DNA of 64,000 nt, from positions 1-64,000 of IMG/VR virus record IMGVR_UViG_3300028802_000009; one strand, 5' to 3'. Below are positions 504 to 21,599 of the stretch, piece by piece. The stretch is from a virus. The notes under the pieces were generated by a model, which did not search any database, was not told the origin of the DNA, and worked only from the letters and a program-made list of their open reading frames with translations. Numbering within the stretch: the stretch's first letter is position 1; every line of letters begins with the position of its first letter. The translations under genes and the position numbers were made by a program.

Positions 504-1157
504 CTAGCCCCACTCGGGGGAGTCAGCCTTCTGCTTCTGCCGCTTTCCAGGCTGGGACGCTGACGATCGCTTTGGGGTGAACAGCCCCTGAATCGCATCG
601 GCCTGACTAGATAGCTCCGACAAGTCTTCCCCGACCCACCCATGGGCTAGGTCGACGTTTGCTGTGATGTCAGCCACGCGAGAGGCAATCTTGAGAAGGT
701 CTGCCTTGGCCCGCACTGAGTCGAATCGTTTGCCAGCGGCGACCAGCCTATCGATGGTTGCATCGGTCTCAGCTACCTTGGTTACGATGTCCTCCGCCAT
801 CTCGACGTTAGAAATCAGGTTGTCGTAAGAAGCAGTCCGCATCTCGGCCTCCAATGTATGACTATCCCACTCGATAAATGGGTTAGTCGATGAGTACCGT
901 GCCCGCCGGAACGGAAGCAGATCCCACATCCGGTCTAGGTCGACCGAAACCACGGCCTTACCGTTAGCCAGAAACTCGTCTAGCGCGATACGAGCCGAGC
1001 GAGCAGATTTAGTGGACCCCACGATGAGACGTAGAACGGATACAGGCCCGAGCATGTACCTCTGGCCGTCAGGAACCTGGACATAGTCCACCACGCCATC
1101 AGTCCCGACGGTGACCATGCCCATGCGAGCACCCCCGGCGACTCGTTTATTCGCCAC
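504..1157 (-). CDS. Hypothetical protein, probable internal head protein (start GTG 1157 or ATG 1124; nested start at 842)
   Basis: Open frame with helical C-terminal half. Internal GGAGG-6nt-ATG at 842 begins MRTAS. Confidence 0.7.
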   Translation of the reverse strand: MANKRVAGGARMGMVTVGTDGVVDYVQVPDGQRYMLGPVSVLRLIVGSTKSARSARIALDEFLANGKAVVSVDLDRMWDLLPFRRARYSSTNPFIEWDSHTLEAEMRTASYDNLISNVEMAEDIVTKVAETDATIDRLVAAGKRFDSVRAKADLLKIASRVADITANVDLAHGWVGEDLSELSSQADAIQGLFTPKRSSASQPGKRQKQKADSPEWG

Positions 1158-1899
1158 GGAAGTCATACATTCCTGCCGCCCGCGAACGCGAGATCGAAAA
1201 GTACTTCTTCCCGCCGGCGTTGGACACCATGTTGCCCAAAGTGACGGTTGAGATGCTCCCATCCTGGCGCTTTACCCGCGCCGAGTCGCCCTCCTGAACG
1301 TCGTGGTCTAGGATCGATACCCCCCAAGTCCCGTCTTTCAGTCTGGCCCAAGAGCCGACAGAGTTAGAGAGCCGTGGCCCACGCGAAGGGCCGTCGCCCT
1401 CACCATCTTCATCGCGAGCCGCCTCCTCTTCATCGTCGTCTTCCTCCCGCTCATGTTCTCTCTCGTCTTCCCTCTGCTCGTGGCGGTAACCCCTATCGGC
1501 ATTGTCGTTTCGCGTCTGAGCCCAGCTGTCCAATTGCTCCGCTTTGTTGTCGTACAGCTCAACCAACGACTCTACTCGGTCAGCAAGATTGTCACGCCAG
1601 TTCTGCGTGCGTTTAACGATCGACTCGCTCTTCCCATCAAGCCCGCGATTATCCTTGAGGGACACCAACCGCACCTTGATCGAGCTTTCGCCCACCCCCC
1701 TCGCGGCATTCGAGTGCACCTTGATCGAGGTCGTTATTCGGACCGCTACGATCTTGCTCAAGCGCAGGTCGTAAAAGTAGGTACCCCCGAACACGCCCTG
1801 TTTTGGATGCAGTGCGTGGAAAGCTCGCTTGATGAACTTGTCCATCTCCTCGATGGTGATGCTCGTGAACTTGGCCGCCATGGCTTGCTTAGTTTTCAT
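1147..1899 (-). CDS. Hypothetical protein with acidic linker, small beta-rich C-terminal domain and terminal MYDFR motif
   Basis: 250-aa ORF with ATGA overlap with the helicase stop; N-terminal KQA motif. Confidence 0.75.
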   Translation of the reverse strand: MKTKQAMAAKFTSITIEEMDKFIKRAFHALHPKQGVFGGTYFYDLRLSKIVAVRITTSIKVHSNAARGVGESSIKVRLVSLKDNRGLDGKSESIVKRTQNWRDNLADRVESLVELYDNKAEQLDSWAQTRNDNADRGYRHEQREDEREHEREEDDDEEEAARDEDGEGDGPSRGPRLSNSVGSWARLKDGTWGVSILDHDVQEGDSARVKRQDGSISTVTLGNMVSNAGGKKYFSISRSRAAGMYDFRGE

Positions 1900-4800
1900 G
1901 GCTCCCTCCGGTCATACGTCACGTTGTAAGTCTCATCGGCGCTCTGGTCATCGGAAAAGCCATGAGCTTGTGCAAAACCCATCGGCAGATCGACCGAAGC
2001 AGTCTTGATCTCTGGTTCAGACGACTTGGCCACAGAGTCTGGTTGAACCACGTTCTCGCCACGTACCAGTCCCGCCTCCTCAACGAACTGACTAAGCCCG
2101 CCGCGCTTCGTACCAGCACAAATGATGTTGAGGTTCTTCTGAGCCCGCGTGATAGCCACATAGGCAAGATTGCGCTCGGCCTCGATCCGTTTCTGTTCTT
2201 TCACTGGGTCGGGCGGTGGGTCGCCTGGTTTCGGCTTAATCTCGATCGGGAACTTACCCTTGGTCATCACGACGAAAACGTTTTCCCATTCCGCGCCCTT
2301 CACCTTGTGAACCGTCGACAAAGTCAGCGCTGGCGCGGGCTCATCACCGTGCTCGCTCTCCCACTGCTCTGTGTCGACGCGAAGCTTATCCCCAAGCGCC
2401 CGATATCGAGCGAGTTTTCGCGCGAACCCCGCAGCATTGGAAGGATCCGTCGCGTTGGCGGCGTCATTGGCATTCGGGATGGCCAACTGAAACAGAAACT
2501 GAACAGCCCCAAGTCCAGCGCCCTCCGCGACGGCCTTCTTGTCCTTGTCGACAAGGCCTCCCCCTTCATCTACGGAAATGGCCTCCTCTTTTTCCTCGTC
2601 CGTTCTCTCCTCCTCCGGCTCATCGTCATCCGAAAAGAGCGCGTTATTGAGTGAAATCTGCTCGCGGAGAGTTTTCGTGGATGCCACCTCGTGTCCGGCG
2701 CCACTAGGCCCCTTTTCATAATTGTAGACTGTTGAGGAGATACCATCGAGAATCGTATTCAGAAGCTCGGAGGTCGGCTGCTGAGGATTGTCTTCCATGT
2801 TCATACGTAGAACACGAATGTCACTCGCGAGCCCTTCGAGATTCTCCGTTAGCTGAGAGACCGCCTTCTTATAGAGCCACTCGCCCTTCTCCATAAGCTT
2901 AGCTTCGTAAGGGCGCTTCAAAGCTCGTGCCAAGATAGACACGTTCTTGCCCTCAAGGAGCTTGTTCGGGTTGATCAGGGACTTGTCAACACGGGTCAGT
3001 CGCGCCACGTCGCGCAAAGCCTCGTCAACACACTTCTCTGCCTCATCGAAGTTGAGAAAGGTGTTGCGCTCCGGGCACAGAATCGCCGCCACGAGCGACT
3101 TCTTCATGCTCTCGTACGAGTCACCCGCAGCTAAGTCGAGATACCCGAGAAGTGCTCGCGACTCCGGGGCCTCCAGGAACCCTTTGCCGCTCTTCTTGAC
3201 GTACCGCATCTCGCCGATAATGCACGCTGTCTCAAAGTCGTTGAGTTCCTTGTTAGTCCGCGCCAGAATCGCAAAGCTCTGCAGGGGCTCTCCGTGTTTG
3301 TGCTTGTCAACTATCTCATTGATCACGCCGATAGCCGCCGAAGCCGAGTCCGGGGGAGTATCCACGGTAATCGACGCGGTCCCGTTCTTCTTGCTCGGCG
3401 CCGCTCGACACTCCATGTCAATCTTATCTTCGTTGTGCACCTGAAGGCGGTTCGCCGCTTCGACAATCTCCGGCTCGCATCTGTAGTTGGTGCGAATTTG
3501 CCGGGTCGTCCACCCTTCCTTTTTGGCGAAGGCAACAAACAGCTCCGGCTTGGAGCCGCGGAACTGATAGATGCACTGCTTATCGTCGCCAATCATCCAC
3601 ATGGACTTTCCGTCGCCGGGCGTGATCTTCCCGGACATGATCTCATAGATCTCGTGCTGGACTAGATTCAGGTCCTGCGCTTCGTCGACCAGGATGTGCT
3701 CGAACGCGTTCTGAACGCGCTCACGCTTCTTCGGGTCACTACGCAGGATATCCAACAGAATCTTCTGCATATCCTCCATGTCGCCCAGGCGCTCGCCGCC
3801 CTTGCGATGCGTACCCATAAACTTCCGATGCGCTCCTGATTCGCAAGGTGGCGCCCATCCGGGAGTATCCCCCTTCAGCCCTAGGTACATGTCATACCAG
3901 ATATACCCGAGGGCCTCCGCCTGTGAGCGAACTTCTTGCTTCGCCAACTCCAACGTCACTCCATTCCCGCGCCACTGGTTCAAGAACGAGTTGGCCGCCT
4001 TCGGTTTGGGCGGACCGCTTTTCACCCACTCCAGAGGGAATCCATAGTGCGCCGCAATCACTTCGGGTTTGCAGTCCGCCCAGGTGTTACGAACGGCCAC
4101 GCTCATCGTGGTACCGGTAAGCTTGCCCTTATCGGTGATCAGACGGGGGCTCTGAAGCATCGCCCGTTCAGTCGGACTCCCAAGCCCCGGCGATGATTTG
4201 TTACCAACGACGAAATTCAGAAAGAGCGAATGCATGGTACTGCAATGAACGTTGTTGGTGCCCACCTTCCGGTCGATCTTGCCCTCAAGCTGAAGGGACG
4301 CCTTTCTATTGAAAGTGCACGCCACGATCTTGCCGCTGTCGCAGCCCCGATCATTGATCAGATACGCGATACGAGATACCAGCGTAGTCGACTTACCAGC
4401 ACCGGCACCGGCCGCGACAAGCACCCGACCATCAGTCAACGCGGCCGCCACCTGCTCCGGGTCGAGCGCTTTACCATTATTGATGAACGCGGCAGGAAGG
4501 TTCTTCGGAATCTCGGGGGTGCTGATAACAGCAGCAACCGTCGCGGCAACAATGCCATGAACTTCTGAGGTTGTGGCGGGCTTGTCCTCAATCCCCGCTG
4601 ACCGCAAGGCTTTGGCAGCTGTTGCGGTCGCGTTAGCTTGTACGGCCGCCAGGACATTCTCTTGCTTGGCAAGAGCCTCTTTAGCCTGTTCCGTGCCTGG
4701 AATCGCAGACTGGGTGACCTTCGCGTCCAGAATCTCGGCGCTTGCGCCGACGAGATCATCCGCGACGGCAGCAACCGGATTCAGAAACTGCTGCGACCCC

Positions 4801-5315
4801 GCTAGCTCTGACGCTTGGTCAATCCACTTGCGCGTTCGCGGGTTACGCATCGGAAGATCGGCGAGCGCTTTGAGCGCTTGGTCCGCATCATCGATGTTCA
4901 GCGCCGTCATCGCCTTTTTTACTTCTTGCCGAGCCTTGCTCTCAGTAAACAACGCATTGAGCAGAGACGGGCCGCCTCGCTTCAAAAGATTGCGAATGCG
5001 ATACGCACGCTCGGCCAAGCCGTTCTGATTGAGGCTGAATCTGAACGCTCTCGTGAGCTGATTCTTGTGCTCTTCCTTTGTGAGATTCTCCAAAAAGAAT
5101 GCCTTAAAGGCATCGCCGCTCGCTCCATCAGCCAAGCGAACTAGCTTCACGGCTTTCTGAATCAGGTCGTCACTAGCCCCAAGACCTTTGAACTCAGACA
5201 CGTAACGGATATACGTGTCGAGCGCGAGCAAAAACACGACATACTCGGCGACCTCTAACTGGCCGACCTCGTCGATCGCTGGCTCAGATTGAAGGACATT
5301 CTGTTCAAGAGGCAT
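1896..5315 (-). CDS. UvrD/PcrA-family SF1A DNA helicase with ~280-aa N-terminal extension
   Basis: SF1A motifs: AGAGAGKST (I), TFNRKA (Ia), STMHSL (Ib), LVDEAQD (II), GDDKQCIYQFRGS (III), NYRC (IV), ILARTN (IVa), STVHKVKGAEW (V), ERNLAYVAITRA (VI). Confidence 0.95.
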   Translation of the reverse strand: MPLEQNVLQSEPAIDEVGQLEVAEYVVFLLALDTYIRYVSEFKGLGASDDLIQKAVKLVRLADGASGDAFKAFFLENLTKEEHKNQLTRAFRFSLNQNGLAERAYRIRNLLKRGGPSLLNALFTESKARQEVKKAMTALNIDDADQALKALADLPMRNPRTRKWIDQASELAGSQQFLNPVAAVADDLVGASAEILDAKVTQSAIPGTEQAKEALAKQENVLAAVQANATATAAKALRSAGIEDKPATTSEVHGIVAATVAAVISTPEIPKNLPAAFINNGKALDPEQVAAALTDGRVLVAAGAGAGKSTTLVSRIAYLINDRGCDSGKIVACTFNRKASLQLEGKIDRKVGTNNVHCSTMHSLFLNFVVGNKSSPGLGSPTERAMLQSPRLITDKGKLTGTTMSVAVRNTWADCKPEVIAAHYGFPLEWVKSGPPKPKAANSFLNQWRGNGVTLELAKQEVRSQAEALGYIWYDMYLGLKGDTPGWAPPCESGAHRKFMGTHRKGGERLGDMEDMQKILLDILRSDPKKRERVQNAFEHILVDEAQDLNLVQHEIYEIMSGKITPGDGKSMWMIGDDKQCIYQFRGSKPELFVAFAKKEGWTTRQIRTNYRCEPEIVEAANRLQVHNEDKIDMECRAAPSKKNGTASITVDTPPDSASAAIGVINEIVDKHKHGEPLQSFAILARTNKELNDFETACIIGEMRYVKKSGKGFLEAPESRALLGYLDLAAGDSYESMKKSLVAAILCPERNTFLNFDEAEKCVDEALRDVARLTRVDKSLINPNKLLEGKNVSILARALKRPYEAKLMEKGEWLYKKAVSQLTENLEGLASDIRVLRMNMEDNPQQPTSELLNTILDGISSTVYNYEKGPSGAGHEVASTKTLREQISLNNALFSDDDEPEEERTDEEKEEAISVDEGGGLVDKDKKAVAEGAGLGAVQFLFQLAIPNANDAANATDPSNAAGFARKLARYRALGDKLRVDTEQWESEHGDEPAPALTLSTVHKVKGAEWENVFVVMTKGKFPIEIKPKPGDPPPDPVKEQKRIEAERNLAYVAITRAQKNLNIICAGTKRGGLSQFVEEAGLVRGENVVQPDSVAKSSEPEIKTASVDLPMGFAQAHGFSDDQSADETYNVTYDRREP

Positions 5316-5327
5316 TCTACTTTCCGT

Positions 5328-5897: not shown

Positions 5898-5974
5898 TAG
5901 GGCGCCTCAACGTGCAGCCAGCACACACAGGAGAGAAAACAAGAAAATCACCGAGGATAGGTGTAGAGGCACCC

Positions 5975-7157: not shown

Positions 7158-7198
7158 CAGTTACACCGACTGCCTCCGTTGGCTCCCGATTAAGTGAC

Positions 7199-7230
7199 TC
7201 GGGGCCACCCCAACCTTGGGATAGCCCCGA
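7199..7230 (-). terminator. Strong hairpin after the sheath gene (terminator or 3' stabilising stem)
   Basis: TCGGGGCTATCCCA-AGGT-TGGGGTGGCCCCGA on the minus strand, 22 nt after the sheath stop; no clear U-tract. Confidence 0.55.
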
Positions 7231-7252
7231 ACTGCGCCACAATGGCTAGGCG

Positions 7253-10200
7253 TTACGCCAAGCGCGCACGAAGATTGAAGGTCATCACGATGTAAAGCAG
7301 CGGGAAGATTGGCGAATAATACATCTCAAACCGCAGAATCGTGGGGTCATCAGGGTCGATAGACGCCGACATTCCTGTGAAGGCGCCGACGATCTCGGCC
7401 TCGACCAGCGACCGGAACAACCCGGTCATGGATGTCACCACCTCGTTGGTACGAGCCGCCAAGAACTTGGAGCCAACGAAGGAGTCCAGGATCGCGCGGC
7501 TCTGCTGATGCACAAAGTCCGCGATTTGAGTGACGGTCGGCAGACGCGTCAATATCGAGGTCATGTTGGTGGTCAACCCATGGCGGATACGGATGATTGG
7601 ATCCAAATCCTCCAGGATCGTGACACCGGCGACCGCCGTCTGATTCGCCTCGACCGGGTCCAAGACACGCGGGATCCTCGTGAAGCCCTGAATTCTCCGG
7701 TGCGTGTATGGGGTCGCTACGTCAACGGCTGGGCTCACGACAGCGCCAGAGACGGCGGCTGCGTAAAAGGTTCCGTCTACGAGGCTATCGAAAGATGCGC
7801 CGAGTTCGTCTGTCAAAGTAATGACAGCAGAGTCTGGGTAGAACGCGACGATACGACTAGAGTTCAGCGCCCTCGCGATAGACTGAACGCTGGTTGGCGA
7901 CGTGCCGGACGCAAATCCGATGAAGCCTTGGCGCTCACTTTGATTGCGCGGGTTACTCTGAATTTCGCAGTGCGCCGTGAGGTGCGTGTACACGCCCGTG
8001 CTCGTAGCCAACGGAATCACGATGCTAGGGCGGATGTTTCCAGGCAGCGGGCTAGCCAGCTCATCGATGGCGGCATTGAATGCCTGATCTGACGCCTGAT
8101 TGGTGTTCGGCATCTTGAGGACCTGCTTGATAATGATCAGCACAGCGCCGTTCAAGATCGCTAGGTAGCCAGCCAAGGTCACCCGATTCTCTGCCGAAGT
8201 ACGACCGAAGTTGGCTTCGATAGTCTTGAGCTGCTGGTAGACCTTCGCCGAGAAATCCTGCTTCATGTAGCGGTAGCTAATGAAGTAGAAGTCACCGACA
8301 GCCGGCTCAACGCCGCTCGGATTGTACGTTACAAGGCTTGCCGTATCGTTCACCCCGACGCCGACCGTGTTGGTCACCAGCAGCTCTAGGCCGCCGATCG
8401 AGTAACGCGGAATGGACGGGCTAACATGCCAGGTAGGTGTCACCTCAAGAGTGAAGGAACCAGCCGAATACGAGCCCGTCGCAGAGGGCAACACTGTGAA
8501 GCGCAGACCCGTTCTCGCGTCCGTATAGGTCTGACCCGGAATGCCAGTGCCGTTCGATCCCACCGCGATACCAGCCGAGCTGCTTACCGTGTAGATCCCC
8601 TGCGCGGCCTCTCCAACGTCTCCATCGGTCAGCGGGTTAATGCCCGTACCCGTGGTCGGATTGAATGCTGAACTACCCGAGTCAACGAAGCCGATGCTAG
8701 ATGTCGTTGCACCCGTCGTCAGCGACTCGATGGTGATGAAGTCCTGTCCGCCGATAGAATCGACATAGGCCACTGCACCACTCGCGAATCCACCGGTGCT
8801 CATCAGTGCGTTCACGACCTCCTGAGCCTCGACCAAGCTCTGGCTCGCCGAGGCGTTCTCATTGAAGCCGAGCACCGCGTTGGCGGAACCAGCCTTGATC
8901 ACGAGCGAGGAACTTGGGTCGTTAGTCGTGCTAGTGAGGCGAATTTTGCCCTCATTAGCATGAGGAAGAGCCGGAAGAACAGCGGCGGGCAACGTCGATG
9001 CCACAGCGGGAACAACTGCGTTGATCGCATTGACCACGGCAACGGCTGTCACAGCAGAGCCAGCAGGCAGCGTCACATTATAGTCGACCCCATTCAACCG
9101 GAAGTTGAACTTGTCATTCAAATCAGCGGTGATACTGAATGGCGCCGCTCGCGAGCCCAACAGCGTTGCTGGCTTGTTGATTGCCCCCGGTGAACCACTT
9201 GCCGAGTCATACGCTGTGAAGCCCAGCAGGGATTCGACCGTACCTTGGTCGATCGTGATATTCGAGATCGTATCAAACCCGGCCGGAAGCGCAGGAGGGG
9301 TCACCGTGCTCGTGATGATGAAGAATACATCTCCCGTGCCAACCTGCTTGAAAGTAACGACAGCATCAGAACCGGGGGCGTCCGCCAGAGCGATGCCATT
9401 CGTTATAGCAGTAACGATGTCGGCAGGAGTCATGGAGGTTGCTGGCGTAAGCTCGATAGGCGGCACGACGGTGCCGTTAACCTTCAGCTTGAGCACGTTT
9501 CCGGGAGCATCCGGAATCGGAATAGCACCAGCGGTCAGAGGGACGCGCGCACCGACCAGAGTCGCGGGCGACGGGGTCACCAAGTTCGTAAGCGCGGGAG
9601 CGCCGTTGACTTCGGTCTCCCAGTTCGCCGAGAACGGGCTGTAGAAGGAGTACGGCGCTGCACCCTTGTTCGTGTACGCTGCGTTCGTAGCAACCGAAGT
9701 GCCAAAGGCAACCGTTACTACCTCCGAGACTGGCGTGCCAGCACCCGTATGGAACGCATCAGGAATCAGCTCCGAACCGCGAGGCCACTGGATAATCTCA
9801 GCAGTGCCAGACTTGGAACCAAACCGGACCTCGAACAGATCCTTGTTCTGCGTGGTTGAGAATACCGTGTACTGCCCAGCTCCGACCGCGCCTGGTACGA
9901 CGTTCGTAAAGATGTACGTGTCGTCTGCCAGACGGCTGTAATAGAACGTCGCATACGCATGATAGTCAGGCGGCTGCGCCGTCTTGAGCTTGAAGCGGCG
10001 GGTAGTTCCGTCGAGTTCGAGAACCTCGACTGCCGGGCGATTCAGCGCATCGCGCAAGTTGCGCCCCGTGTAAACCTTCACGAGGTCCGGGCGATTCGTC
10101 ACCAGATCTTGACGGCTGTTGGAAACTGAGTTGAACGTGCTCAGACCAAGTGTGGTGCTGCGGCCATTACCCGTGGTCGGGACCTCCGGCAGCAAATAGT

Positions 10201-11584
10201 CCGTGGCGGAAAGCGTAGCTGGGATCGTGGTCGTATCAACGACGCGCGGGCAGTCTCCCAGGTACATCACGTCGTCGATCAGAGTTCCAACGATCTGACC
10301 ACCAGAGCCGGTCGAGCCATCGAATGGCGTCGCACCAGGAGTCGTCGCAGATGCAGTAACCTGAAAGCTCGACCCCCAGTTGATCACGCTCACATCCGTA
10401 GATGGATTGCTGACCACGAAGTCCGTGCCCTGGATGAAATCGTTGCGTCCCGGCGAGATACCGCAGCGCAGCACCGTCGTGACCAGACTGTTAGGCAGAT
10501 AGTCAAACGTGTCCTGCCAGGTGTTCGCCCAGTATTGGATCGTGACAGTCGACCCCATAGCCGGAGCGAAAGGCAGCGTCACGATACCGGCACCGCCGTT
10601 GACCGCCTCAGCGACTACCTGGAATCCGTCAACCTTTGCGACCACCTTGGAAGGGTCAGTCGTTGTCGTCCCGCCGCCCGTACCGTCCACAATGGGCCGC
10701 TGAAACACGCGGAAATCGCGGTTACGGTTTGTAGTGGCACCCGTGGTCCAACCCAGCGGACCATTTGCCGAACCATCCCCAATCGTGATGCCGAACGGAT
10801 TGGTCAGCCGAAGATGGTCGCGACCCTGGTTGTCAGTGAACACAGACGCCGAAAGGTTCGGCACCTGAGCCCCATTCACAGTGGAGGCGATGGTAGCCGC
10901 CGACAACGCGCCACCCGGCAGCACGATTGTCGCCGTTACGGCGTTGGCGGTAACAATGAACTGGTCATTGACCTCCGTGACGATGTTGAACCGATAAGCG
11001 CCCGGAGCCGGGAGGATCGTGGAATCAAATGTGCCGTAACCCGGAGACACCAACGTGGCGTTCTCCGTAGACACCTGCTCCGAGACATCATCCGTGAACG
11101 CGGTGTCCCCGCGATGAAAGTAGTAGGTGACCCGAACCTGGTCATTCGGCTGGGTCGGGATCTGAATGGTCACCAGACCCTTCTGGCCGTTGAGACTGCC
11201 AAGCGACACCGGCGATCCGTTCACAGACACAGAAGCCGCTCGAACATCGTTGGTGACACGGCCAAAACCCTGCCCGTCCACGATGGGGAAGTTACGGACT
11301 CGGAACGTCGTCAACGTCCCGTCCTGAGCACCCAAAAGCAGATTGTTCGGATTCGTCGAGTCTACAACCCAGCTCTCAGACACATCTTCATTGACGATCT
11401 GCTGGTCTACGGTTGCCGACGACCCGCGGACAAGCTCAAAGTCAGTCTGCTCCAACTCCTCCTGGCCCACCCCAATCAACGCTGGGATCCGAAGACCCGC
11501 AACCAAGTTTGACGCGTTCGTCTCTGTCAGAGTGCGGGTATAAACCCCCGGAGGCGCGTAAGAAATGAAGGGACCCAATGCCAT
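7253..11584 (-). CDS. Contractile tail sheath protein (1443 aa, long inserted domains)
   Basis: N-terminal YAPPGVYTRT and C-terminal DDPTILRFEMYYSPIFPLLYIVMTFNL are typical of sheath proteins; SD GGAG; tail-module context. Confidence 0.9.
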   Translation of the reverse strand: MALGPFISYAPPGVYTRTLTETNASNLVAGLRIPALIGVGQEELEQTDFELVRGSSATVDQQIVNEDVSESWVVDSTNPNNLLLGAQDGTLTTFRVRNFPIVDGQGFGRVTNDVRAASVSVNGSPVSLGSLNGQKGLVTIQIPTQPNDQVRVTYYFHRGDTAFTDDVSEQVSTENATLVSPGYGTFDSTILPAPGAYRFNIVTEVNDQFIVTANAVTATIVLPGGALSAATIASTVNGAQVPNLSASVFTDNQGRDHLRLTNPFGITIGDGSANGPLGWTTGATTNRNRDFRVFQRPIVDGTGGGTTTTDPSKVVAKVDGFQVVAEAVNGGAGIVTLPFAPAMGSTVTIQYWANTWQDTFDYLPNSLVTTVLRCGISPGRNDFIQGTDFVVSNPSTDVSVINWGSSFQVTASATTPGATPFDGSTGSGGQIVGTLIDDVMYLGDCPRVVDTTTIPATLSATDYLLPEVPTTGNGRSTTLGLSTFNSVSNSRQDLVTNRPDLVKVYTGRNLRDALNRPAVEVLELDGTTRRFKLKTAQPPDYHAYATFYYSRLADDTYIFTNVVPGAVGAGQYTVFSTTQNKDLFEVRFGSKSGTAEIIQWPRGSELIPDAFHTGAGTPVSEVVTVAFGTSVATNAAYTNKGAAPYSFYSPFSANWETEVNGAPALTNLVTPSPATLVGARVPLTAGAIPIPDAPGNVLKLKVNGTVVPPIELTPATSMTPADIVTAITNGIALADAPGSDAVVTFKQVGTGDVFFIITSTVTPPALPAGFDTISNITIDQGTVESLLGFTAYDSASGSPGAINKPATLLGSRAAPFSITADLNDKFNFRLNGVDYNVTLPAGSAVTAVAVVNAINAVVPAVASTLPAAVLPALPHANEGKIRLTSTTNDPSSSLVIKAGSANAVLGFNENASASQSLVEAQEVVNALMSTGGFASGAVAYVDSIGGQDFITIESLTTGATTSSIGFVDSGSSAFNPTTGTGINPLTDGDVGEAAQGIYTVSSSAGIAVGSNGTGIPGQTYTDARTGLRFTVLPSATGSYSAGSFTLEVTPTWHVSPSIPRYSIGGLELLVTNTVGVGVNDTASLVTYNPSGVEPAVGDFYFISYRYMKQDFSAKVYQQLKTIEANFGRTSAENRVTLAGYLAILNGAVLIIIKQVLKMPNTNQASDQAFNAAIDELASPLPGNIRPSIVIPLATSTGVYTHLTAHCEIQSNPRNQSERQGFIGFASGTSPTSVQSIARALNSSRIVAFYPDSAVITLTDELGASFDSLVDGTFYAAAVSGAVVSPAVDVATPYTHRRIQGFTRIPRVLDPVEANQTAVAGVTILEDLDPIIRIRHGLTTNMTSILTRLPTVTQIADFVHQQSRAILDSFVGSKFLAARTNEVVTSMTGLFRSLVEAEIVGAFTGMSASIDPDDPTILRFEMYYSPIFPLLYIVMTFNLRARLA

Positions 11585-12179: not shown

Positions 12180-12187
12180 TTTTTGTC

Positions 12188-13369
12188 CTATTTGATGCGC
12201 TCGAAATCATAGTTACGGCCGATGATCACTGGCATGGTCGAGAACACCAGGCTGTTGTTCACGTCACCGATAATCGCGGTACGGCCAGCGACACCCGGCA
12301 CGTCGCGCTGTGGGTCCGTAGTGACAACACTGATCGTCAAAGGCAGCGGCTCGTGGACTTCCCATGGGGTTTGCAGCTGGAGACTCAGAGAGGCCGTGTA
12401 GAAAAACTCGTCCCCGGTCTCATCCGCCACTTCCTCAGCTTCGCCGCCAATCGAGACATCCACTACTTCGATCCCCTCTGCGGACAGCTTCGGTCTTTTT
12501 TGGTAGAGCAAATACATCATCGTGAGGTCCGCCAGCTCTTCCATCTGGTGAGGGTCGCGGGCAATCACGTCCATCTCAAACGTAAGGTCGAAGCGCCCAC
12601 CATACGCATTGGCCGTCGGTGTCCTATCATCGTAGACCACCACAGCGACCTTATCGCCGGGCTTCCCCCTCTTACCAAAAGCAAGCACCACCCCCGGCAA
12701 CGTCCTAAAGTCGGAGGTGTTCCATTGATACGTAACCGGCCCGATGGACGCGACGGGATAGCGATAATCCGCGGTGACCACAGCGCCATGAGAAAACCGC
12801 TCAAGGAAGGTCACCTCTCCCGTGGCGTAATCCACCGCATAGTGCTTGCCCTCGACCAGTCGATAGTTGCGGTTCTGCCACATGCGTAGCGTCCCCTGGA
12901 CAGGCAACTGTTGCAGCTGTCCGAACGTCTCGATGCCCGACAAGAATCTGATGACCGGCTCATCATTGACGGTGAGCAACGGGTCGATCATGAACTTGCC
13001 AATCGACTGCGCGTCCGCCGGAGCCTCAAGGATCTCCACATAGTAGATCCCCGGAGGCAGAGGCATTCGGCCCCCGTGCAGGTCAAGATGGGCCGCATCT
13101 TCAACCACCCACTCAAGTGGGAAGGTCGGCGCACCCACGTAGCCAAGCATCACGTAACTGTTCAAGGTGCCGATGAACTGGTCAGCTGAGAGCGAGACCT
13201 TGTTGGCAGAAGCCCCTTTGACCACTATCCCGAACTGCGGACGCTCGGCGAACGAGTACTTATTCTCAATATTGGAAACGATCTTGTTATAGACGGGGTG
13301 CTGTGCAAACGAGTCTTTTAGCTCAAGAATGAGCCGGCGCTTCATTGCGTTGAGCAGATTATAATACAC
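12188..13369 (-). CDS. Putative tail completion/terminator protein
   Basis: Lies upstream of the sheath; tail-terminator-like C-terminal pattern (FEMDVIARDP..EELADL); inserted YAVDYATGEVTF...VTADY beta domain seen in baseplate/tail proteins. Confidence 0.55.
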   Translation of the reverse strand: MYYNLLNAMKRRLILELKDSFAQHPVYNKIVSNIENKYSFAERPQFGIVVKGASANKVSLSADQFIGTLNSYVMLGYVGAPTFPLEWVVEDAAHLDLHGGRMPLPPGIYYVEILEAPADAQSIGKFMIDPLLTVNDEPVIRFLSGIETFGQLQQLPVQGTLRMWQNRNYRLVEGKHYAVDYATGEVTFLERFSHGAVVTADYRYPVASIGPVTYQWNTSDFRTLPGVVLAFGKRGKPGDKVAVVVYDDRTPTANAYGGRFDLTFEMDVIARDPHQMEELADLTMMYLLYQKRPKLSAEGIEVVDVSIGGEAEEVADETGDEFFYTASLSLQLQTPWEVHEPLPLTISVVTTDPQRDVPGVAGRTAIIGDVNNSLVFSTMPVIIGRNYDFERIK

Positions 13370-13390
13370 GGCGACCCTTTATTTCCCGAA

Positions 13391-14404
13391 CTAGACCTGA
13401 CTGTGCTCCTCGGTTGCCAGCACAAGGAGCCCTTCAGCGACGGCGGTCATTGGGTCTTTGGCAGCCCTGACTTCGCTGATCTGAATCGGAAAGCCCCGCT
13501 TCTTGATTGCCTCGAATTCCTCCATGAACACTTCCATGAAGCCTCCGGCGCGAGTCGTGCCCCCGCTGAATACGAAGGGGATAGGCTCCGGCAGGTTGAT
13601 CCCTGCCTGGTTCTTTCGGAACTGAAGAGCGATGTTCTCTAGCACGTACTTGATCAGAGACCGAATATAGAGGGCGAGTGCCTCTTCTTCACGAGATTTG
13701 GGCTCGGCGAGATCAACGCCCTTTTCCTTGATGGCGCACATGCGAGCCGACGTATTGCCCACCGCCTTTGCAGCGTGCGAATCAACCCAGTCACCTCCGC
13801 GTGCGACAGAGAAATCCATGCCCTTGATCGTCTGATAAGCCAGCGCAATGTTGCCCATACCAGAGCCAAAGCTCACGGACAGACCAGAGAAGTTCTCCGC
13901 GGCACATTGCGAGTAGATGATCGCCATGGCCTCGTTCATGGGATGGGGCGTGTATCCAAGCTCACCCAAGATCTTCCGAAAGACCTCTTGGTGATAGATA
14001 ATATCCTGAGCGGTATCATCCACGGGCGACGCCGGAACACTGTAGTAGCAATGCTCCGCCTTCACGACGGGATCGCCAATGACATTTGAAATCAGCAAGC
14101 TGAGAATCTGCTGGGCATCCAACTCCCCAGCCGCAATCACGCCCTTGCTCAATGGCCGGCGCACCTCTCGGTTGAACAGATTAGCCATGGTCAGCGCGGA
14201 GTCTCCGAGTACCACCAGAGTTCCTTGGCGCTCTACGTAGTCGACCTTGGATAGGCGGAGCGTCTTCTTGGCCTCCAGATCCAGGTCAAGAAATGCGTCC
14301 CGAATTCGCCTCAGCTCCAAGCTATCCCCGTCCGCCAACTGGCGAGCTGAGACAATATTCATGGTGCCTAGGTCGAGCCCACACGCGGGCTTGTATTTTG
14401 ACAT
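13391..14404 (-). CDS. Actin-like ATPase (MreB/MamK/ParM superfamily)
   Basis: Phosphate-1 GLDLGTMN, RRPL..GVI, connect-1 NEAMA, phosphate-2 SFGSGMGN, GGDWVD, adenosine SGGTT, C-terminal DPMTAVAEG. SD GGAG favours ATG 14404. Confidence 0.88.
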   Translation of the reverse strand: MSKYKPACGLDLGTMNIVSARQLADGDSLELRRIRDAFLDLDLEAKKTLRLSKVDYVERQGTLVVLGDSALTMANLFNREVRRPLSKGVIAAGELDAQQILSLLISNVIGDPVVKAEHCYYSVPASPVDDTAQDIIYHQEVFRKILGELGYTPHPMNEAMAIIYSQCAAENFSGLSVSFGSGMGNIALAYQTIKGMDFSVARGGDWVDSHAAKAVGNTSARMCAIKEKGVDLAEPKSREEEALALYIRSLIKYVLENIALQFRKNQAGINLPEPIPFVFSGGTTRAGGFMEVFMEEFEAIKKRGFPIQISEVRAAKDPMTAVAEGLLVLATEEHSQV

Positions 14405-14442
14405 CTCTATCTCCATCCTAAAGCCCTGTGCTTGGGCGGGGT

Positions 14443-15078
14443 CTAACGACTATCGTAACTGTAGGCTTCCCGGCCCCCGTTACGCTGCTGCAGCAGGTAA
14501 ACGAATTCTTCGTGCTTATCTGCTACACCTTGAAGCAAGTTGTCAGTGCCTGAACTCAGGCAGTTCTTTTCCTCTAGCCGGGTCCTTGCCGTCTCCAAGC
14601 AGTCGAGCACGCATCGCTCAACCTCAAGACTTTGTCGCACCATCTCGTCCGGGGATGGTGGCACAGGTGACCGGCACCAATGGCGAACCAAAACCGGGAT
14701 CATATCGGCCTGCAGCTTCGGACAAACGAGCCCGTCACCCCCCGCTCCGACAGCTCTCTCGGCAACCTGGTCAATGAATCCGACCGACTCGTTGTAGAAC
14801 CGCTCGAACAACAAGTGGTCTCCGTATTGAGCCGTGCCACAGGTCTGCCAGTGGTGACTCTGATGTACCAGTGCAGCGGCGCGCAGAATCCCGACCAAAA
14901 CACCAAGCTCCTCAACACCGGCCCCCGCAGGCATCGTCTTCGCAAGAAGAGACACAAGGACGCCGCCTTCCATGGAGGCCGTTTTAGCCCTGGATTCTGG
15001 AAGATAGGGCGCGCCATTCTCAGATGGCTCGAAAGCCAGCGGGTCAACCCAGAGAGCGTGAATAGAATCTTGTGCCAT
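14443..15078 (-). CDS. Dps/ferritin-like four-helix protein
   Basis: HQSHHWQ..G..YGDHLLFERFY......DQVAER matches the Dps ferroxidase signature; C-terminal DKHEEFVYLL helix; ends YSYDSR. Confidence 0.8.
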   Translation of the reverse strand: MAQDSIHALWVDPLAFEPSENGAPYLPESRAKTASMEGGVLVSLLAKTMPAGAGVEELGVLVGILRAAALVHQSHHWQTCGTAQYGDHLLFERFYNESVGFIDQVAERAVGAGGDGLVCPKLQADMIPVLVRHWCRSPVPPSPDEMVRQSLEVERCVLDCLETARTRLEEKNCLSSGTDNLLQGVADKHEEFVYLLQQRNGGREAYSYDSR

Positions 15079-15083
15079 CACCT

Positions 15084-15782
15084 TCACCAAGACCTACCCG
15101 GAACGTCGATAACGATGAAATGGAACTCGGCGCTCTGAAACCTGACTTCGCTCTGCCGGACCAACTCCGGGTCCATGGCTCCCACAAGGTCAGCCCGCGA
15201 CAGGCGCAGCAGCCTAGATTGATGAGCCTCAATCAGCATGGCGTCGAATTTGGACCGCTCCATACGCGGAAACCCGCGATCCTTCACGCTAGAGATGAAA
15301 ACGTGCTCCTCGTAGTACTTCTTGCTTTGAGGTGACTTCGCGACGGCCAGCGCTTTAGCCGCGAACGCATGCAGGTCCTTCGGGTCGTCAGCATCATCCA
15401 TCTTGGAGTCGGACTTGGTCTCATCCGCCTTCTCTTCCTTCAAGATCTTGCCGATCTGAGACGGCATTATCTTCTTAGGCTTCGTGGTGAATCCAGGTCC
15501 GCCGTAGGGCGAGCGAACAGTAGTCGTGATCTTGCGGTCTAGCCAAAACATGTTCCCCTCGGGATCCGTGTATTGCCAGAGCACCGCTTGACCAGCCGCC
15601 AAGTGCGTCGCCCCACCGCTTATCCGGTCGACGTAGTCAACCAAGGCCATTACGTGGCCTTTCTTTGGTATCGCCCTAGTCTCACCACGCGCAGCGGTGC
15701 GGCGCTCCGAAGGAGGCTTGCCAGAGACCATAGCTGTCAAAGCTATAGCCCCCACCGATACATTAGCTTGACGTGGGTGCAT
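15084..15782 (-). CDS. Hypothetical two-domain protein; C-terminal domain possibly winged-helix-like
   Basis: ORF with SD GAGG; C-terminal VFISSV...LLRLSRADLVGAMDP...SE....FHFI domain. Confidence 0.7.
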   Translation of the reverse strand: MHPRQANVSVGAIALTAMVSGKPPSERRTAARGETRAIPKKGHVMALVDYVDRISGGATHLAAGQAVLWQYTDPEGNMFWLDRKITTTVRSPYGGPGFTTKPKKIMPSQIGKILKEEKADETKSDSKMDDADDPKDLHAFAAKALAVAKSPQSKKYYEEHVFISSVKDRGFPRMERSKFDAMLIEAHQSRLLRLSRADLVGAMDPELVRQSEVRFQSAEFHFIVIDVPGRSW

Positions 15783-15821
15783 CGAAGATTCCTCTGTTCA
15801 GGTGTTCGCAAGAAAGGTTTA

Positions 15822-16469: not shown

Positions 16470-16470
16470 G

Positions 16471-17013
16471 TCAGCTAGACTTCCTCATGGATTTGCGCAC
16501 TTGCTTCGCCACCTCGACCCTAAATTTCTTACGCAGAAACTCGCGAGTCTCTTCCTTGGCGCGCTCTATAAAGTCGGATGGTGGTCTTCCTGGATGCAAC
16601 CAGCCTTTTTTCCGCCCAACATTTGGCCCTGTCATCGGCCCTTGCGTCCAAGTCAACGACCGCGCATGAGCGCTCCGGAAAATCAGCTTTCCTGTCTCCG
16701 TGATGATCGGGATTGGGCGCCGAGCCTTCTTGAGCCACCTCATTTGCCCACGCTTTTGGCCTAGCACGAGGGCGTGAAACCCAGGATGGTCGGTTGTCAC
16801 CACAAGAGACGCCGGCCGGGCCTCGATCTGAATGGATTTGACAAGGGACTTCTTGGCTCTGACCGAGTACGTGGTCTGCGTGAGCTTACGCTTGAGACGG
16901 ACCATCAGTTCCCGGCGTGCTTTACGCAAGACACTGCTCATATCGCCGATGGTGATCCCGTGCGGGAACAACGGCTTTACCATCATGCGGGCGGCTATGA
17001 CCTTCTTGCCCAT
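16471..17013 (-). CDS. Basic neck/tail-completion protein (HK97 gp10-like / virion morphogenesis family)
   Basis: Highly basic; WLHPGRPPSDFIERA motif; TAATG overlap with the upstream gene gives start 17013. Confidence 0.55.
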   Translation of the reverse strand: MGKKVIAARMMVKPLFPHGITIGDMSSVLRKARRELMVRLKRKLTQTTYSVRAKKSLVKSIQIEARPASLVVTTDHPGFHALVLGQKRGQMRWLKKARRPIPIITETGKLIFRSAHARSLTWTQGPMTGPNVGRKKGWLHPGRPPSDFIERAKEETREFLRKKFRVEVAKQVRKSMRKSS

Positions 17014-18374: not shown

Positions 18375-18413
18375 GGGCTACCCCCTTCTAGAGAGAAGCC
18401 ACAAGGAAAAAGA

Positions 18414-18716
18414 CTAGGACGCCGCTGGCTCCTCCAGAGCGGTTTCCGCCTTGCGATCCAAGAGCTTCAGCTCACCCGTCTTATCATTGATACTGACCGG
18501 GGTCCCCGGCTGGAGACCCCGTTCAATCAACACCTGCTCGAATAAGCGTTGCCGCTGCTGGTCCACCTGATGAGCCGCGGCGAGGACACGCACCCGCTCC
18601 TGCTCAAGTTCGAGTAACCGAAACCCAAGCTCGTAGCGGGCGCTGTCAAGGTCCGAGAATTTGGCGAGAACATCCGGTTGTACCGGGTCGCTGAGAGTCA
18701 GAGACGCGTTGGGCAT
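18414..18716 (-). CDS. Small coiled-coil protein (possible assembly chaperone)
   Basis: 100-aa ORF from ATG 18716; LLELEQERVRVL...QQRQRLFEQ. Confidence 0.6.
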   Translation of the reverse strand: MPNASLTLSDPVQPDVLAKFSDLDSARYELGFRLLELEQERVRVLAAAHQVDQQRQRLFEQVLIERGLQPGTPVSINDKTGELKLLDRKAETALEEPAAS

Positions 18717-18723
18717 GCCCCCG

Positions 18724-19602
18724 TTACACCAAAAGCTTCCAGACCGCGTCGCGCCACCAGCTGGCAACGCGCTTTAGCCACTGACGCGGAGTTGCGAGCG
18801 GCGCCTCTGGCTGCGGCTCCTCTGGCGGCGGCGCTGGCGGTCTCGCCTCCTCCACAAGGGCACGCATTTTGATGGGGTCTCCGGTCGCCCGATGATATCG
18901 GCTCGCCAGGTGTCCGTTCATACCGGGACGCTCCTGCCCCTCCCACATCTTGTTGGACGCATTAAACCCGATGCTCGGGTGCCACAGATGCAAGACTTCG
19001 GCATTCAAGGTCTTGTGCTTGCCGTACAACGTGTCGACAGCTCGCACGAAGGCCACGTCCTCACCACCCCAACCTTCGAATCTACGGTCCATGCCGCCAA
19101 CGCTCTCAAAAGCCTCTCGGGGCATAATTTGCACCATCGCCCCGAAATGGTGACCATACGTGGCAGTGGTCATTGACTCCACGTCATCTGGTGACGGCGG
19201 TGACGGCAACCTAACCGGCCACTTCGGGTCTGAGTTCAAGATCAGCTCCGTACTCGCCTCTACGAGACGGTACAAACGACGGTACGGAATGAACCAGCGG
19301 TTTTGACCTCGACGAGCCGACTCCTCGATGGCTCGCGCAGCCCGAAGAATCGTATCGCCCCGAAGATAGGCATCAGAATCCAACAACACAAAGATGCGGC
19401 CATGTGCCTTCTTGGCAGCATCATTGAGCGCCTCAGTCTTAGAGAACGCCGCGGCCGTAGACGTGCCGATCACGACCTCCGCGTCGGGCAACTCATATTG
19501 CCAATAGGTTCGCAACCAACTCCACAGGCGAGTCCGGTGTGGCGACGACGCGCTGGCCCGAAACGGAACCAACAATGAGATTTGCGGTCTAGGATAGCTC
19601 AT
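18724..19602 (-). CDS. GT-A fold glycosyltransferase (family 2 / galactosyltransferase-like)
   Basis: ISLLVPFR, FSKTEALN, LLDSD (DxD), GGMDRRFEGWGGED, HLWH motifs. Confidence 0.9.
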   Translation of the reverse strand: MSYPRPQISLLVPFRASASSPHRTRLWSWLRTYWQYELPDAEVVIGTSTAAAFSKTEALNDAAKKAHGRIFVLLDSDAYLRGDTILRAARAIEESARRGQNRWFIPYRRLYRLVEASTELILNSDPKWPVRLPSPPSPDDVESMTTATYGHHFGAMVQIMPREAFESVGGMDRRFEGWGGEDVAFVRAVDTLYGKHKTLNAEVLHLWHPSIGFNASNKMWEGQERPGMNGHLASRYHRATGDPIKMRALVEEARPPAPPPEEPQPEAPLATPRQWLKRVASWWRDAVWKLLV

Positions 19603-20351
19603 TTGGACAACCCCGCCAGTTTGCGCCCGTACTCTTCGAACACGTCGAAAAGTTCGTGCTGACGATCTTGGACCTTGTAGCGATGCGCCTCCTGAGTCAC
19701 CCCAACCTGAAAGGGGACGCCAACGGCGGCACAGTGATCGCGGAACTTGAAGTCACCGCCCTCCTTGGCAAACCTCTCCGTCATCTCGATTCTTCGCGGG
19801 ATACCAAAGGCATCCGCCACGATGATCCCGTGAAGCGAGGAAGAAACGATCTTCCGGCACTCCCCGATCTTACGGATCACCTCAAGTGGGTCCTCCGTTG
19901 GACGAATGATCACGGGATTGTAACGCGCGAACTCAGGACGTAGCTCCAACGTCGTATCCGACCAATGCGGAACTAGCCCGAGCGCGTGCTTCTTTTCCTG
20001 CCGTGGGACAAGCTCGTCGGCAAGAAGCCCAGCGTCACCAAGAACAAACTCCTTCTTCACACCCTTGACGCACTGAGCGGTAAGCGGCCCACGCAACGCC
20101 AATACCTGCGCTCGCGACAGATCAATGCTGCTGCCCTCCTTCAATTTGCCAGAGCCAATGATCGTTCCGGACCAGCCCGGAGGAAGATGCTCAAGGACAG
20201 AACCGACGCAGACAAAACTAGCTTCGCTCACTGGAGCCCAAGCCACCTCTAGATCGGCAAAGTGTGACAGCAACAACGGTGTCAAAAGATCGCCGAAATT
20301 AGGTCTTCCCCGCCACCAATAGCCAAGAGGAGCTACGCGAGAAGAAAGCAT
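19599..20351 (-). CDS. Polysaccharide pyruvyltransferase (ExoV-like)
   Basis: NFGDLL, VGSVL, LRGPLT, GDAGLL, LVPHW, SSSLHGIIVADAFGIP, FKFRD motifs; ATGA-coupled to the glycosyltransferase. Confidence 0.88.
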   Translation of the reverse strand: MLSSRVAPLGYWWRGRPNFGDLLTPLLLSHFADLEVAWAPVSEASFVCVGSVLEHLPPGWSGTIIGSGKLKEGSSIDLSRAQVLALRGPLTAQCVKGVKKEFVLGDAGLLADELVPRQEKKHALGLVPHWSDTTLELRPEFARYNPVIIRPTEDPLEVIRKIGECRKIVSSSLHGIIVADAFGIPRRIEMTERFAKEGGDFKFRDHCAAVGVPFQVGVTQEAHRYKVQDRQHELFDVFEEYGRKLAGLSK

Positions 20352-20399
20352 ATAGCATATTCTCCGTTGAAGGCCTACCAGTGTAATTTCATAAGGAGT

Positions 20400-21599
20400 C
20401 TATAACAATCCGTCGTCCGAAAACGCTTGGTAAACTGCGGTCAAGATCAGCTTGCGGCTGCGGGCGTTGAGGTCTTTCTCGATGTTCGACCACGTGAACG
20501 ACAAGCGCAACGACGAATCAACCAACTTGGTACCGCTCATGTGCTCGCTGAGCTTGTGTGCCATTCGCACTGTCTCATCGACGATTTGCTGCATGAACGC
20601 GCGTACCTCGTGAGGGTCGTTTACGTAGTCTTTCTCATTCTTGACCTTGTAGTCCTTGTCATACTCATACTGGAGTGGCTTGCGGAACGCGGTCTCAGCG
20701 GCATGGGTCGTCTCGTGAATCAAGACAGTGTACAGACCAAAGGGAAGACAAGTCTCGGAAGTGCACTCGCTGAGTGGCGTGAAACGATCCGTGACAAACG
20801 AAGCCAGGTCCGTGTTGGACCCGTTGGTGGCGAGATATTCGTTCGGAGACATGGCCCCATTCAACTGAAGCGTCACCTGGACGAAAGCCTCTCCATTTTC
20901 AAAGTGCCGTGTCCCAGCCGTCCCCATTAGCACCGGATATGCCTTACGGGTTGCACGGGCCGAGATCACCAGCACATCGATTCTGAGCTGCTCTGTGCCA
21001 TCCACTGAATCGACGTAGAATCTCGCTTCCGCCACGGCTGTATCACGAGCACCGATCGGCTGGTCCGGATGCGGGTGACGTTCCAACCACCGCTTTACCT
21101 GAGGAACAAGCTCGTTTTGGACGACCCGTCTGATCAACGCCTTGTCTATGCGTATCGGTCGCGTCGCCATTCTGCGGTCATAGCTGTACCCCATCTTGAC
21201 CTCCTTCAGCTGGATACCAGGGCGCAAGATGATCTCCCGCTCATGTCCGAACGCCTTGCCGCCAAGAGGCATCTCATCCTGGCCGTAATGCACCAAGGCG
21301 TCCTTGGCCCCGATCTCGTACGCCTTGAACAACGCCGGGTCCAGGTTGGGCTTCCGCGGCGAGACCGATGCGCCCCCCATGTCGCCGCGTGGCTTGTACC
21401 GATACACGGTCGCACTAGCGCCGTGCTCGGCGCGAAACGCCCGCTCCACGTCTGCGTCGTAGGCTGCCTTGGCTTTAGGCGACAAGCCCTCGTACGCCTC
21501 TAGCAGAGCGTTCTTGCTGGACCTGGACGGATGGTGGACCCAGTCCATGGCCGCTGGGTACATGGCATCGATCGCTTCGCCTAGCCACACGCCCAGCAT
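20400..21599 (-). CDS. Fusion of ADP-ribosyltransferase-like domain and HExxH zincin-like domain
   Basis: N-terminal VYR..SVS..EREI (R-S-E pattern); C-terminal LIHETTHAAE...YVNDPHEVRAF; internal AAGGAGGT SD before ATG 21194. Confidence 0.6.
   Translation of the reverse strand: MLGVWLGEAIDAMYPAAMDWVHHPSRSSKNALLEAYEGLSPKAKAAYDADVERAFRAEHGASATVYRYKPRGDMGGASVSPRKPNLDPALFKAYEIGAKDALVHYGQDEMPLGGKAFGHEREIILRPGIQLKEVKMGYSYDRRMATRPIRIDKALIRRVVQNELVPQVKRWLERHPHPDQPIGARDTAVAEARFYVDSVDGTEQLRIDVLVISARATRKAYPVLMGTAGTRHFENGEAFVQVTLQLNGAMSPNEYLATNGSNTDLASFVTDRFTPLSECTSETCLPFGLYTVLIHETTHAAETAFRKPLQYEYDKDYKVKNEKDYVNDPHEVRAFMQQIVDETVRMAHKLSEHMSGTKLVDSSLRLSFTWSNIEKDLNARSRKLILTAVYQAFSDDGLL

Follow-up and report, generated by a model that had tools for sequence, protein, structure and literature searches.

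Why should unrelated proteins of one phage carry nearly the same few residues at a terminus or a domain junction? The question is raised by IMG/VR virus record IMGVR_UViG_3300028802_000009, a 73,141-bp virus contig whose first 64 kb (the window, the whole stretch analyzed here) codes for four proteins with a short aromatic-Asp-Arg motif: a Dps-like protein, a UvrD-like helicase, a protein of 250 amino acids (aa), and a 399-aa protein with a zincin domain. The window capsid protein is 85% identical to that of LR745208.1 (a 485-kb uncultured phage), 47% to that of Tunturiibacter phage Tunturi_5, and 40% to that of Bacillus phage G, and the window is therefore a fragment of a phage-G-like huge phage. 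Comparison of sequences across its relatives indicates that selection maintains the motif as a genuine short linear tag. Its core is [ST]-Y-[DE]-x-R, commonly in the form Y-S-Y-D-x-R, and among phage-G-like huge phages there is a subclade that puts it at the C terminus, the N terminus, or a domain junction of unrelated proteins. This type-1 motif is one of at least three interchangeable tags, the others being x-W-K-[AVI] (type 2, C-terminal) and R-V-A-x-R-[FY] (type 3, mostly N-terminal). By analogy with known systems, the tag is on balance probably a cleavable capsid-loading signal, similar to the phage T4 capsid-targeting sequence (CTS) except that it can stand at either end and follows herpesvirus-like cutting logic. 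The type-1 tags of the window and the elements at the internal start are as follows.

14446..14463, minus strand: Y-S-Y-D-S-R, type-1 tag at the C terminus of the Dps-like protein (gene 14443-15090), with R-E-A just before it
1899..1919, minus strand: T-Y-D-R-R-E-P, type-1 tag at the C terminus of the UvrD-like helicase (gene 1896-5315)
1150..1182, minus strand: R-A-A and then G-M-Y-D-F-R-G-E, type-1 tag at the C terminus of the 250-aa protein (gene 1147-1899)
21165..21194, minus strand: M-G-Y-S-Y-D-R-R-M-A, residues 136-145 of the 399-aa open reading frame (ORF) 20400-21599, at the junction of its N-domain and zincin (HExxH) domain
21192-21194, minus strand: internal ATG of the 399-aa ORF, first codon of the junction peptide
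21199..21206, minus strand: AAGGAGGT, 4 nt upstream of the internal ATG of the 399-aa ORF

All four motif instances reported in the initial annotation are present, the internal ATG does follow a Shine-Dalgarno sequence, and the carriers are, as it held, unrelated, with no BLAST relation among the four proteins. The Dps-like protein matches the ferritin family (PF00210, 28.7 bits, cut-off 24.5); the NCBIfam Dps models score far below their cut-offs, and the protein is thus ferritin-like rather than an equivalog of Dps. The helicase has both UvrD domains, N-terminal (PF00580, E 4e-39) and C-terminal (PF13361, E 1.2e-27). The 250-aa protein has no firm identity from Pfam, PHROGs, NCBIfam, or Atlas. 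The N-domain of the 399-aa ORF has no match in Pfam, PHROG, or NCBIfam, and the label of ADP-ribosyltransferase (ART) formerly given to it comes down to an Atlas lead of 0.80 to a PF03496 cluster, below the bar of 0.9. Its C-domain also lacks a family match, and H-E-x-T-H is nearly invariant in 10 aligned homologues. Two weaker look-alikes (in 50745-51470 and 12188-13369) do not survive comparison, being internal or unconserved, with the Tyr varying as Y/H/N/D/S.

What places the motif beyond chance is that orthologues keep it while the flanking residues diverge. A scan of IMG/VR with the Dps-like protein yielded 26 loci at 36-81% identity. In these Dps orthologues a variable linker separates the conserved last helix from a terminal Y-S-Y-D-S-R, S-Y-D-R-R, G-Y-D-F-R, or Y-N-Y-D-R-R; the tails of one clade end in Y-S-Y-A-R or Y-S-Y-G-R, and Y-S-Y-[AG]-R is a clade variant of the type-1 tag. 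A search for related loci with the helicase alone gave no match, and the helicase and 250-aa orthologues were reached through the records of the related loci. At 35-48% identity their tails cannot be aligned, yet the tag is still at the end, for example as ..T-Y-D-R-R-N-V, ..G-Y-D-W-R-A-P, ..S-Y-D-L-R-G-A, or ..Y-W-D-S-R-Y. When distinct tails are counted by a regular expression that looks for [YW][DE].R or Y[AGR]R among the final 12 residues, the tag is found in 18/22 Dps-like tails (the misses are two fusions with an internal tag, one near-variant, and one W-K tail), 11/13 helicase tails (two misses), and 9/12 tails of the 250-aa family (three misses), so that homologues of these proteins, in which the absence of the motif had been the thing to look for, mostly retain it. 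The baseline for the same expression is 38/2645 ORFs, carriers counted in, across six genomes, namely this contig and five large related contigs (G002, G003, G004, G007, and G010) in which a crude longest-ORF rule defined the ORFs. The tags of two families also covary: within one record, the Dps orthologue and the 250-aa orthologue both terminate in the rare Y-S-Y-A-R.

Larger samples show the same tag together with considerable variation around it. Among the best 120 Dps homologues, 79 were anchored and 41 without the anchor pattern were dropped; 50 of the 79 have a C-terminal tag and 7 have it at the junction of longer fusions, and the rest are 3 longer near-variant forms, 6 W-K tails, and 13 others, mostly Y-S-Y-D-R-[AGST] variants, together with two R-V-A-S-R-[YW] tails. 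The best 75 helicase representatives include 15 with the tag, 9 with W-K tails, and 51 with neither by the expression, many of these being near-variants or other aromatic-acidic tails and some being fragments; the next 75 include no tags and 4 W-K tails. The Dps-like copy of LR745208.1 has no tail.

The tag is also portable, as the initial annotation had proposed: it is found at N termini, C termini, and junctions of unrelated proteins, and its 27 carriers make up 17 families with no BLAST relation to one another. A free-standing zincin that is a homologue of the 399-aa ORF's C-domain starts with M-G-Y-S-Y-D-R-R, another HExxH protein with M-T-Y-S-Y-D-R-R, a SprT-like peptidase (PF10263, 27.4 bits, cut-off 25.6) with M-P-M-T-Y-D-Y-R, and three unrelated G002 proteins with M-T-Y-D-F-R. 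One related locus (L001) has the same N-domain and junction peptide as the 399-aa ORF, followed by an ART-PolyVal domain (PF18760, E 1.7e-11) that replaces the zincin. One G002 carrier gene lies between the gene for a 378-aa head-module protein and the capsid gene. Some Dps orthologues (loci L003 and L004; P0254-P0259 and others) are fused to an extra C-terminal domain of ~100 residues, and in these fusions the tag is at the junction with an R-T-A-type site on each side. We note also a 112-aa homologue of the 250-aa family in G004 (ORF 232207-232545; BLAST, E<1e-3, >=40 residues) that has the tag at its N terminus and by eye matches the C-terminal half of the family; the short 250-family orthologue in G004 has lost the tag, a split in which the tag has gone to the opposite end.

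Pooled statistics agree with use at both termini. The contig has 11 instances of [YF]-D-x-R in its 67 minus-strand ORFs, 3 of them within 2 residues of the C terminus, and when three-residue patterns in the nine C-terminal residues of this contig's ORFs are scanned blind, Y-D-x-R ranks first (3 versus 0.10 expected, P=1.7e-4); it tops no other genome in the per-genome scan, where other patterns rank first. Over the six genomes there are 56 instances of [STYG]-Y-[DE]-x-R, of which 11 lie among the 20 N-terminal residues (4.5 expected) and 9 no more than 8 residues from the C terminus (2.0 expected); the reversed-order control has 2 and 2 of 34 at the termini.

Two further tags exchange with the type-1 tag, and the window has an example of each.

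43197..43211, minus strand: D-P-W-K-V, type-2 tag at the C terminus of a 554-aa head-module protein (43194-44858), after ..S-T-A-S
62341..62358, minus strand: R-V-A-A-R-F, type-3 tag, residues 9-14 of a 137-aa protein (61969-62382)

Zincin orthologues and paralogues bear either a Y-D-x-R tag or R-V-A-x-R-[FY], N- or C-terminally, and x-W-K-[AVI] replaces the Y-D-x-R tag on some Dps orthologues. All three tags occur on Dps tails, which argues that they are equivalent in function. The six genomes have 51 instances of R-V-A-x-R-[FY], of which 21 are in the first 20 residues (4.1 expected, P=1e-10); the leader, also written R-[VIL]-[AV]-x-R-[FY], is seen in many ORFs of G002 to G010 and is probably the main N-terminal tag of the clade. 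The type-2 tail resembles the conserved end of the scaffold-like protein described below (..L-W-Q-S-A-P-D-V). The 554-aa protein itself has three acidic repeats of ~45 residues, and its orthologues end in ..W-K-A or ..W-K-V after [KR]-T-A-S. The single motif first proposed is thus real, with at least two other interchangeable tags having been missed.

A capsid-loading tag of the T4 or herpesvirus kind would be expected to adjoin a site for the head protease, and a candidate, [KR]-x-A followed by Ser, recurs in tag carriers and head proteins alike. PHROGs identify window genes for a portal, a large terminase, an HK97-type capsid protein, and a head-maturation protease, and Pfam identifies a Volactin-family actin-like protein, the ferritin-like protein, and the UvrD-type helicase; tail-type genes are present as well, and nearly all genes are on the minus strand. 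The features that bear on processing are as follows.

14974..14985, minus strand: K-T-A-S, candidate protease site in the Dps-like protein, following its conserved N-terminal segment of 35 residues
1995..2006, minus strand: K-T-A-S, candidate protease site 35 residues before the helicase C terminus, followed by an acidic spacer
47838..49136, minus strand: acidic, Q-rich scaffold-like protein; [KR]-T-A-S sites at residues 90, 381, and 405; C-terminal tail ..L-S-S-L-W-Q-S-A-P-D-V.. conserved
46206..47087, minus strand: major capsid protein, HK97 type (phrog_2522, E 3e-49), with I-K-T-A-A and K-L-A-A-S at its N terminus
49188..50738, minus strand: prohead protease (phrog_18299, E 4e-10)

The contig has 13 [KR]-T-A-S sites (1.2 expected), 7 of them in the head module (3 in the scaffold-like protein and 2 apiece in the two proteins of 554 and 378 aa encoded beside the capsid gene), one each in the Dps-like protein and the helicase, and the other four in ORFs 504-1262, 26467-27582, 38071-41823, and 64376-66289. 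G002 has 15 (4.1 expected, P=2.6e-5), 11 of them within its structural block at 127-163 kb. Five scaffold orthologues keep E-K-T-A and R-T-A-S without change, as islands amid low-complexity sequence. Carriers show corresponding arrangements: [KR]-x-A is conserved at the Dps K-T-A-S column of the orthologue alignment, it lies 10-35 residues before the C-terminal tags of helicase and 250-aa orthologues (K/R-T-A recurs 20-40 residues from the end in the helicases), and it directly follows N-terminal tags (R-R-M-A, R-R-V-A, and V-R-T-A-S). Because the motif is enriched and is invariant in the scaffold, we infer that [KR]-x-A-S would be cut between Ala and Ser. Ahead of the Dps site, residues ~8-35 (14983-15090, minus strand; ..H-A-[IL]-W-V-D-P-..-G-P-P-Y-L-P-E) are among the best-conserved stretches of the protein, with [KR]-x-A next to them, and this segment may be a second docking or propeptide element. 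In Tunturi_5 (PP885688.1), K-T-A-S occurs three times in a 563-aa ORF (302827-304518) and once each in proteins annotated as a "DNA ejection protein" and a "DarB-like antirestriction protein" (273832-276330 and 305039-308281).

The structural model of the head protease indicates a herpesvirus assemblin/T4 gp21 fold. In the protein, residues ~45-262 make up the assemblin/gp21-fold domain, which is followed by a linker of low complexity, a helical C-domain, and the C-terminal peptide G-R-L-Y-A-L-G-R-S. A model built from 53 homologues has a pLDDT of 75.1 (an earlier five-sequence model, pLDDT 39.5, was unusable), and VIA-align matches its residues ~45-262 to varicella-zoster virus protease (Z 9.4, root mean square deviation [rmsd] 2.8, 110 aligned), T4 gp21 (Z 9.1, rmsd 3.1, 125/164 aligned), and pseudorabies virus (PrV) protease (Z 8.7, rmsd 3.1, 121 aligned), with herpesvirus proteases making up most of the top 30 structural rows. 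The match by Foldseek on its own is weak (gp21 at best, E 0.047), a PDB sequence search with the protease profile gave nothing meaningful, and there is no match for the protease in Pfam or NCBIfam. The protease C terminus is itself conserved as K-G-[RK]-[LI]-[YF]-[ADS]-L-G.. in about 115 homologues; PMC10052503 describes a C-terminal propeptide on the SPN3US prohead protease and T4 propeptides that target proteins into the core. The protease gene of some relatives is broken by large insertions (1425 versus 516 aa; G007 ORF 159633-163910, L111 and neighbors), several homologues have intein/Hint domains (PF05203, PF14890, and PF07591 in P0127, P0159, P0161, and P0167), and helicase orthologues of 1400-2400 aa suggest similar insertions.

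If the tag is a capsid-loading signal, it would dock late-made cargo (the Dps-like ferritin, the UvrD-like helicase, several zincin peptidases, and the ART-PolyVal enzyme) inside the prohead as it assembles, with the scaffold or capsid protein as the docking partner. The assemblin-fold protease would then cut the adjacent [KR]-x-A-S and free the cargo, much as herpesvirus scaffold is released at the M-site and the T4 CTS is trimmed, and the freed proteins would travel with the DNA into the next host. A prediction of the complex of the capsid protein, scaffold residues 1-165, and the helicase tail (residues 1100-1139) scored 0.00, which is evidence neither way.

Parts of this scheme have precedents. 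The T4 CTS is known only as an N-terminal peptide and ends in L/I-x-E. Like the tags described here, it is a short terminal peptide on unrelated proteins (IPI-III and Alt) that adjoins a head protease cut site (putative in our case), is removed by gp21, a protease of the same predicted fold, and has an ADP-ribosyltransferase among its cargo (T4 capsid targeting as described in PMC10052503 and PMC5512222). The phage-G-like tags differ in being C-terminal (Dps, helicase, 250-aa), N-terminal (zincins), or at junctions rather than only at the extreme N terminus, and in their sequence, their putative [KR]-x-A-S site, and the interchange of three tags. The herpesvirus scaffold (pUL26.5/pUL26) is similar in that its cleavage site, a few tens of residues short of the C terminus, has Ala at P1 and Ser/Thr at P1': as PMC4498786 sets out for the assemblins, cleavage is at Ala-Ser or Ala-Thr (PrV sites YLQA-T and VQA-S), and the PrV M-site cut removes the C-terminal 37 residues by which the scaffold holds the capsid protein. 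The K-T-A-S of the phage scaffold, 28 residues from its end, has the layout of that M-site. In herpesviruses, however, the tail is on the scaffold and protease only, whereas here the same layout appears, by sequence, on a helicase, a Dps-like protein, and peptidases.

Encapsulin cargo-loading peptides are short terminal peptides on ferritin-like and other cargo. The resemblance is that a ferritin-superfamily protein here ends in a short peptide that would bind within an HK97-fold shell, but this is a DNA-packaging phage with portal, terminase, and tail-type genes, the peptide is unrelated, and the tags look cleavable. The polyvalent proteins and the phage P1 Dar system likewise have zincin peptidases, ART-PolyVal domains, and large helicases beside virion genes, and differ in that the proteins here are mostly separate and small, each with its own tag, rather than one giant polypeptide. 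The zincin and ART domains of phage polyvalent proteins are predicted by Iyer et al. (2017, PMC5512222) to be packaged and injected, and the cargo set here (zincins, SprT-like, ART-PolyVal, large helicase) matches domains for which that account makes the prediction. A narrow, phrase-based literature search found no description of such a tag in phage-G-like phages. The principle is nonetheless known from the T4 CTS and the herpesvirus scaffold tail, and to call the motif an undescribed protein-delivery code was an overstatement. What appears to be new, judging from the sequences, is the code itself, its C-terminal and junction use, the interchange of three tags, the apparent application of the herpesvirus-like Ala-Ser logic to enzymes, and the putative Dps-like and helicase cargo.

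Several observations weigh against capsid loading. Some carriers are far from structural genes (in G002 at 0.3, 5, 196, and 223 kb), and the helicase, the Dps-like protein, and the helicase-adjacent 250-aa protein would also fit a DNA-centered hub. The initial annotation placed a (K/R)-x-A site between tag and folded domain in each case; this is usual but not universal, with an upstream [KR]-x-A within the tail in only 27/50 tagged Dps tails. Enrichment of [KR]-T-A-S is weaker in G003 (12 versus 5.8 expected), G004 (8 versus 6.3), G007 (10 versus 4.6), and G010 (14 versus 7.8). Terminal enrichment of Y-D-x-R in the window fails multiple-test correction because 2141 patterns were seen; in the six pooled genomes [STYG]-Y-[DE]-x-R is enriched at both termini, although these genomes share ancestry and the P values are therefore generous. 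With a rule as crude as the longest ORF, N-terminal tag positions hinge on the choice of start codon. Of the cultured relatives, phage G homologues have no tag and a scan of Tunturi_5 gave no convincing type-1 or type-3 terminal tags, and the tag-bearing subclade is known by sequence from uncultured phages only. Since its homologues are untagged, the phage G particle proteome gives no support; it lists a ferritin-like protein and the helicase ps201 (equated with gp299 from a numbering offset) but also 55% of nucleic-acid proteins.

Of the other explanations, one is that the tags act in the manner of clamp- or SSB-binding tails and tether the proteins that bear them to some hub other than the capsid within the infected cell, with the nearby [KR]-x-A unrelated; the hub could be a replication or repair factor, a phage compartment, or the conserved Volactin-family protein encoded beside the Dps gene. 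In the window, three of the four carriers have a link to DNA or to the helicase, the Dps gene adjoins a Volactin-family gene in 26/26 loci, and the carriers outside the structural block and the Dps tails lacking an upstream site point the same way. We nevertheless consider a hub of this kind unlikely: zincin, SprT-like, and ART-PolyVal carriers are a misfit for a replisome, no polymerase, primase, or clamp-loader ORF has a tag, fusion tags are flanked by two [KR]-x-A sites, and the same type of site is invariant in the scaffold. Clamp-loader-like N-terminal matches were rejected as tags, having a different conserved motif. The positions of the tags beside cleavage-like sites and at fusion junctions, on potentially self-toxic enzymes, would also suit an exosite or recognition signal for proteolysis by the assemblin-fold or another protease, which would activate or separate domains without capsid loading, or a timed degron. 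That assemblin-type proteases act inside procapsids in the systems treated in PMC4498786 and PMC10052503, that a swap of three tags at either end is better explained by docking than by a protease subsite, and that the protease itself has a conserved C-terminal peptide make such a role quite unlikely.

Finally, the tags could have no shared function, each family keeping its own tail for its own reasons and the likeness between families being coincidental, as a short, degenerate motif and within-window statistics that fail correction would allow. This is the least likely rival, and a very improbable one, given the covariation and tag swapping: two families of a single genome share one clade-specific variant, the Dps and zincin families each exchange the same three tags, 17 unrelated families have a terminal tag, and reversed-order controls lack terminal enrichment.

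Should capsid loading be correct, the proteins injected by a huge phage could be read from sequence alone through their tags, and the list would include a Dps-like protein and a UvrD-type helicase, neither of them a classical virion protein. Capsid loading could then use C-terminal, N-terminal, or internal tags with herpesvirus-like cutting logic, and the tags would be short portable peptides for packaging foreign proteins into large capsids. A fuller version, which we offer tentatively and regard as doubtful, is an address code of at least three either-end peptides with a herpes-type Ala-Ser site, in which cargo enzymes imitate the cleavable capsid-binding tail of the scaffold and a ferritin-like DNA protector, a repair helicase, anti-host peptidases, and ARTs are loaded into the head. 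If true, it would form a mechanistic bridge between the T4 CTS, herpesvirus scaffold release, and encapsulin cargo loading. The capsid protein has 2061 homologues at E<=1e-20, and the clade is thus common in environmental data.

Other genes of the window lie outside this argument. The Volactin-family actin-like protein (13391-14416, minus strand; PF25216, E 7e-73) has its gene between the Dps gene and genes of structural appearance, and in each of the 26 related loci it is syntenic, at 62-96% identity, with the Dps gene adjoining. A 1443-aa protein (7253-11584, minus strand) has no family match above threshold and is 54-84% conserved in 26/26 loci; its ends are ones that we take to be tail-sheath-like, and Tunturi_5 has a 3.6-kb gene annotated as tail sheath. 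A patatin-like phospholipase (28992-29876, minus strand; PF01734, E 4e-32) is encoded amid tail- and virion-type genes.

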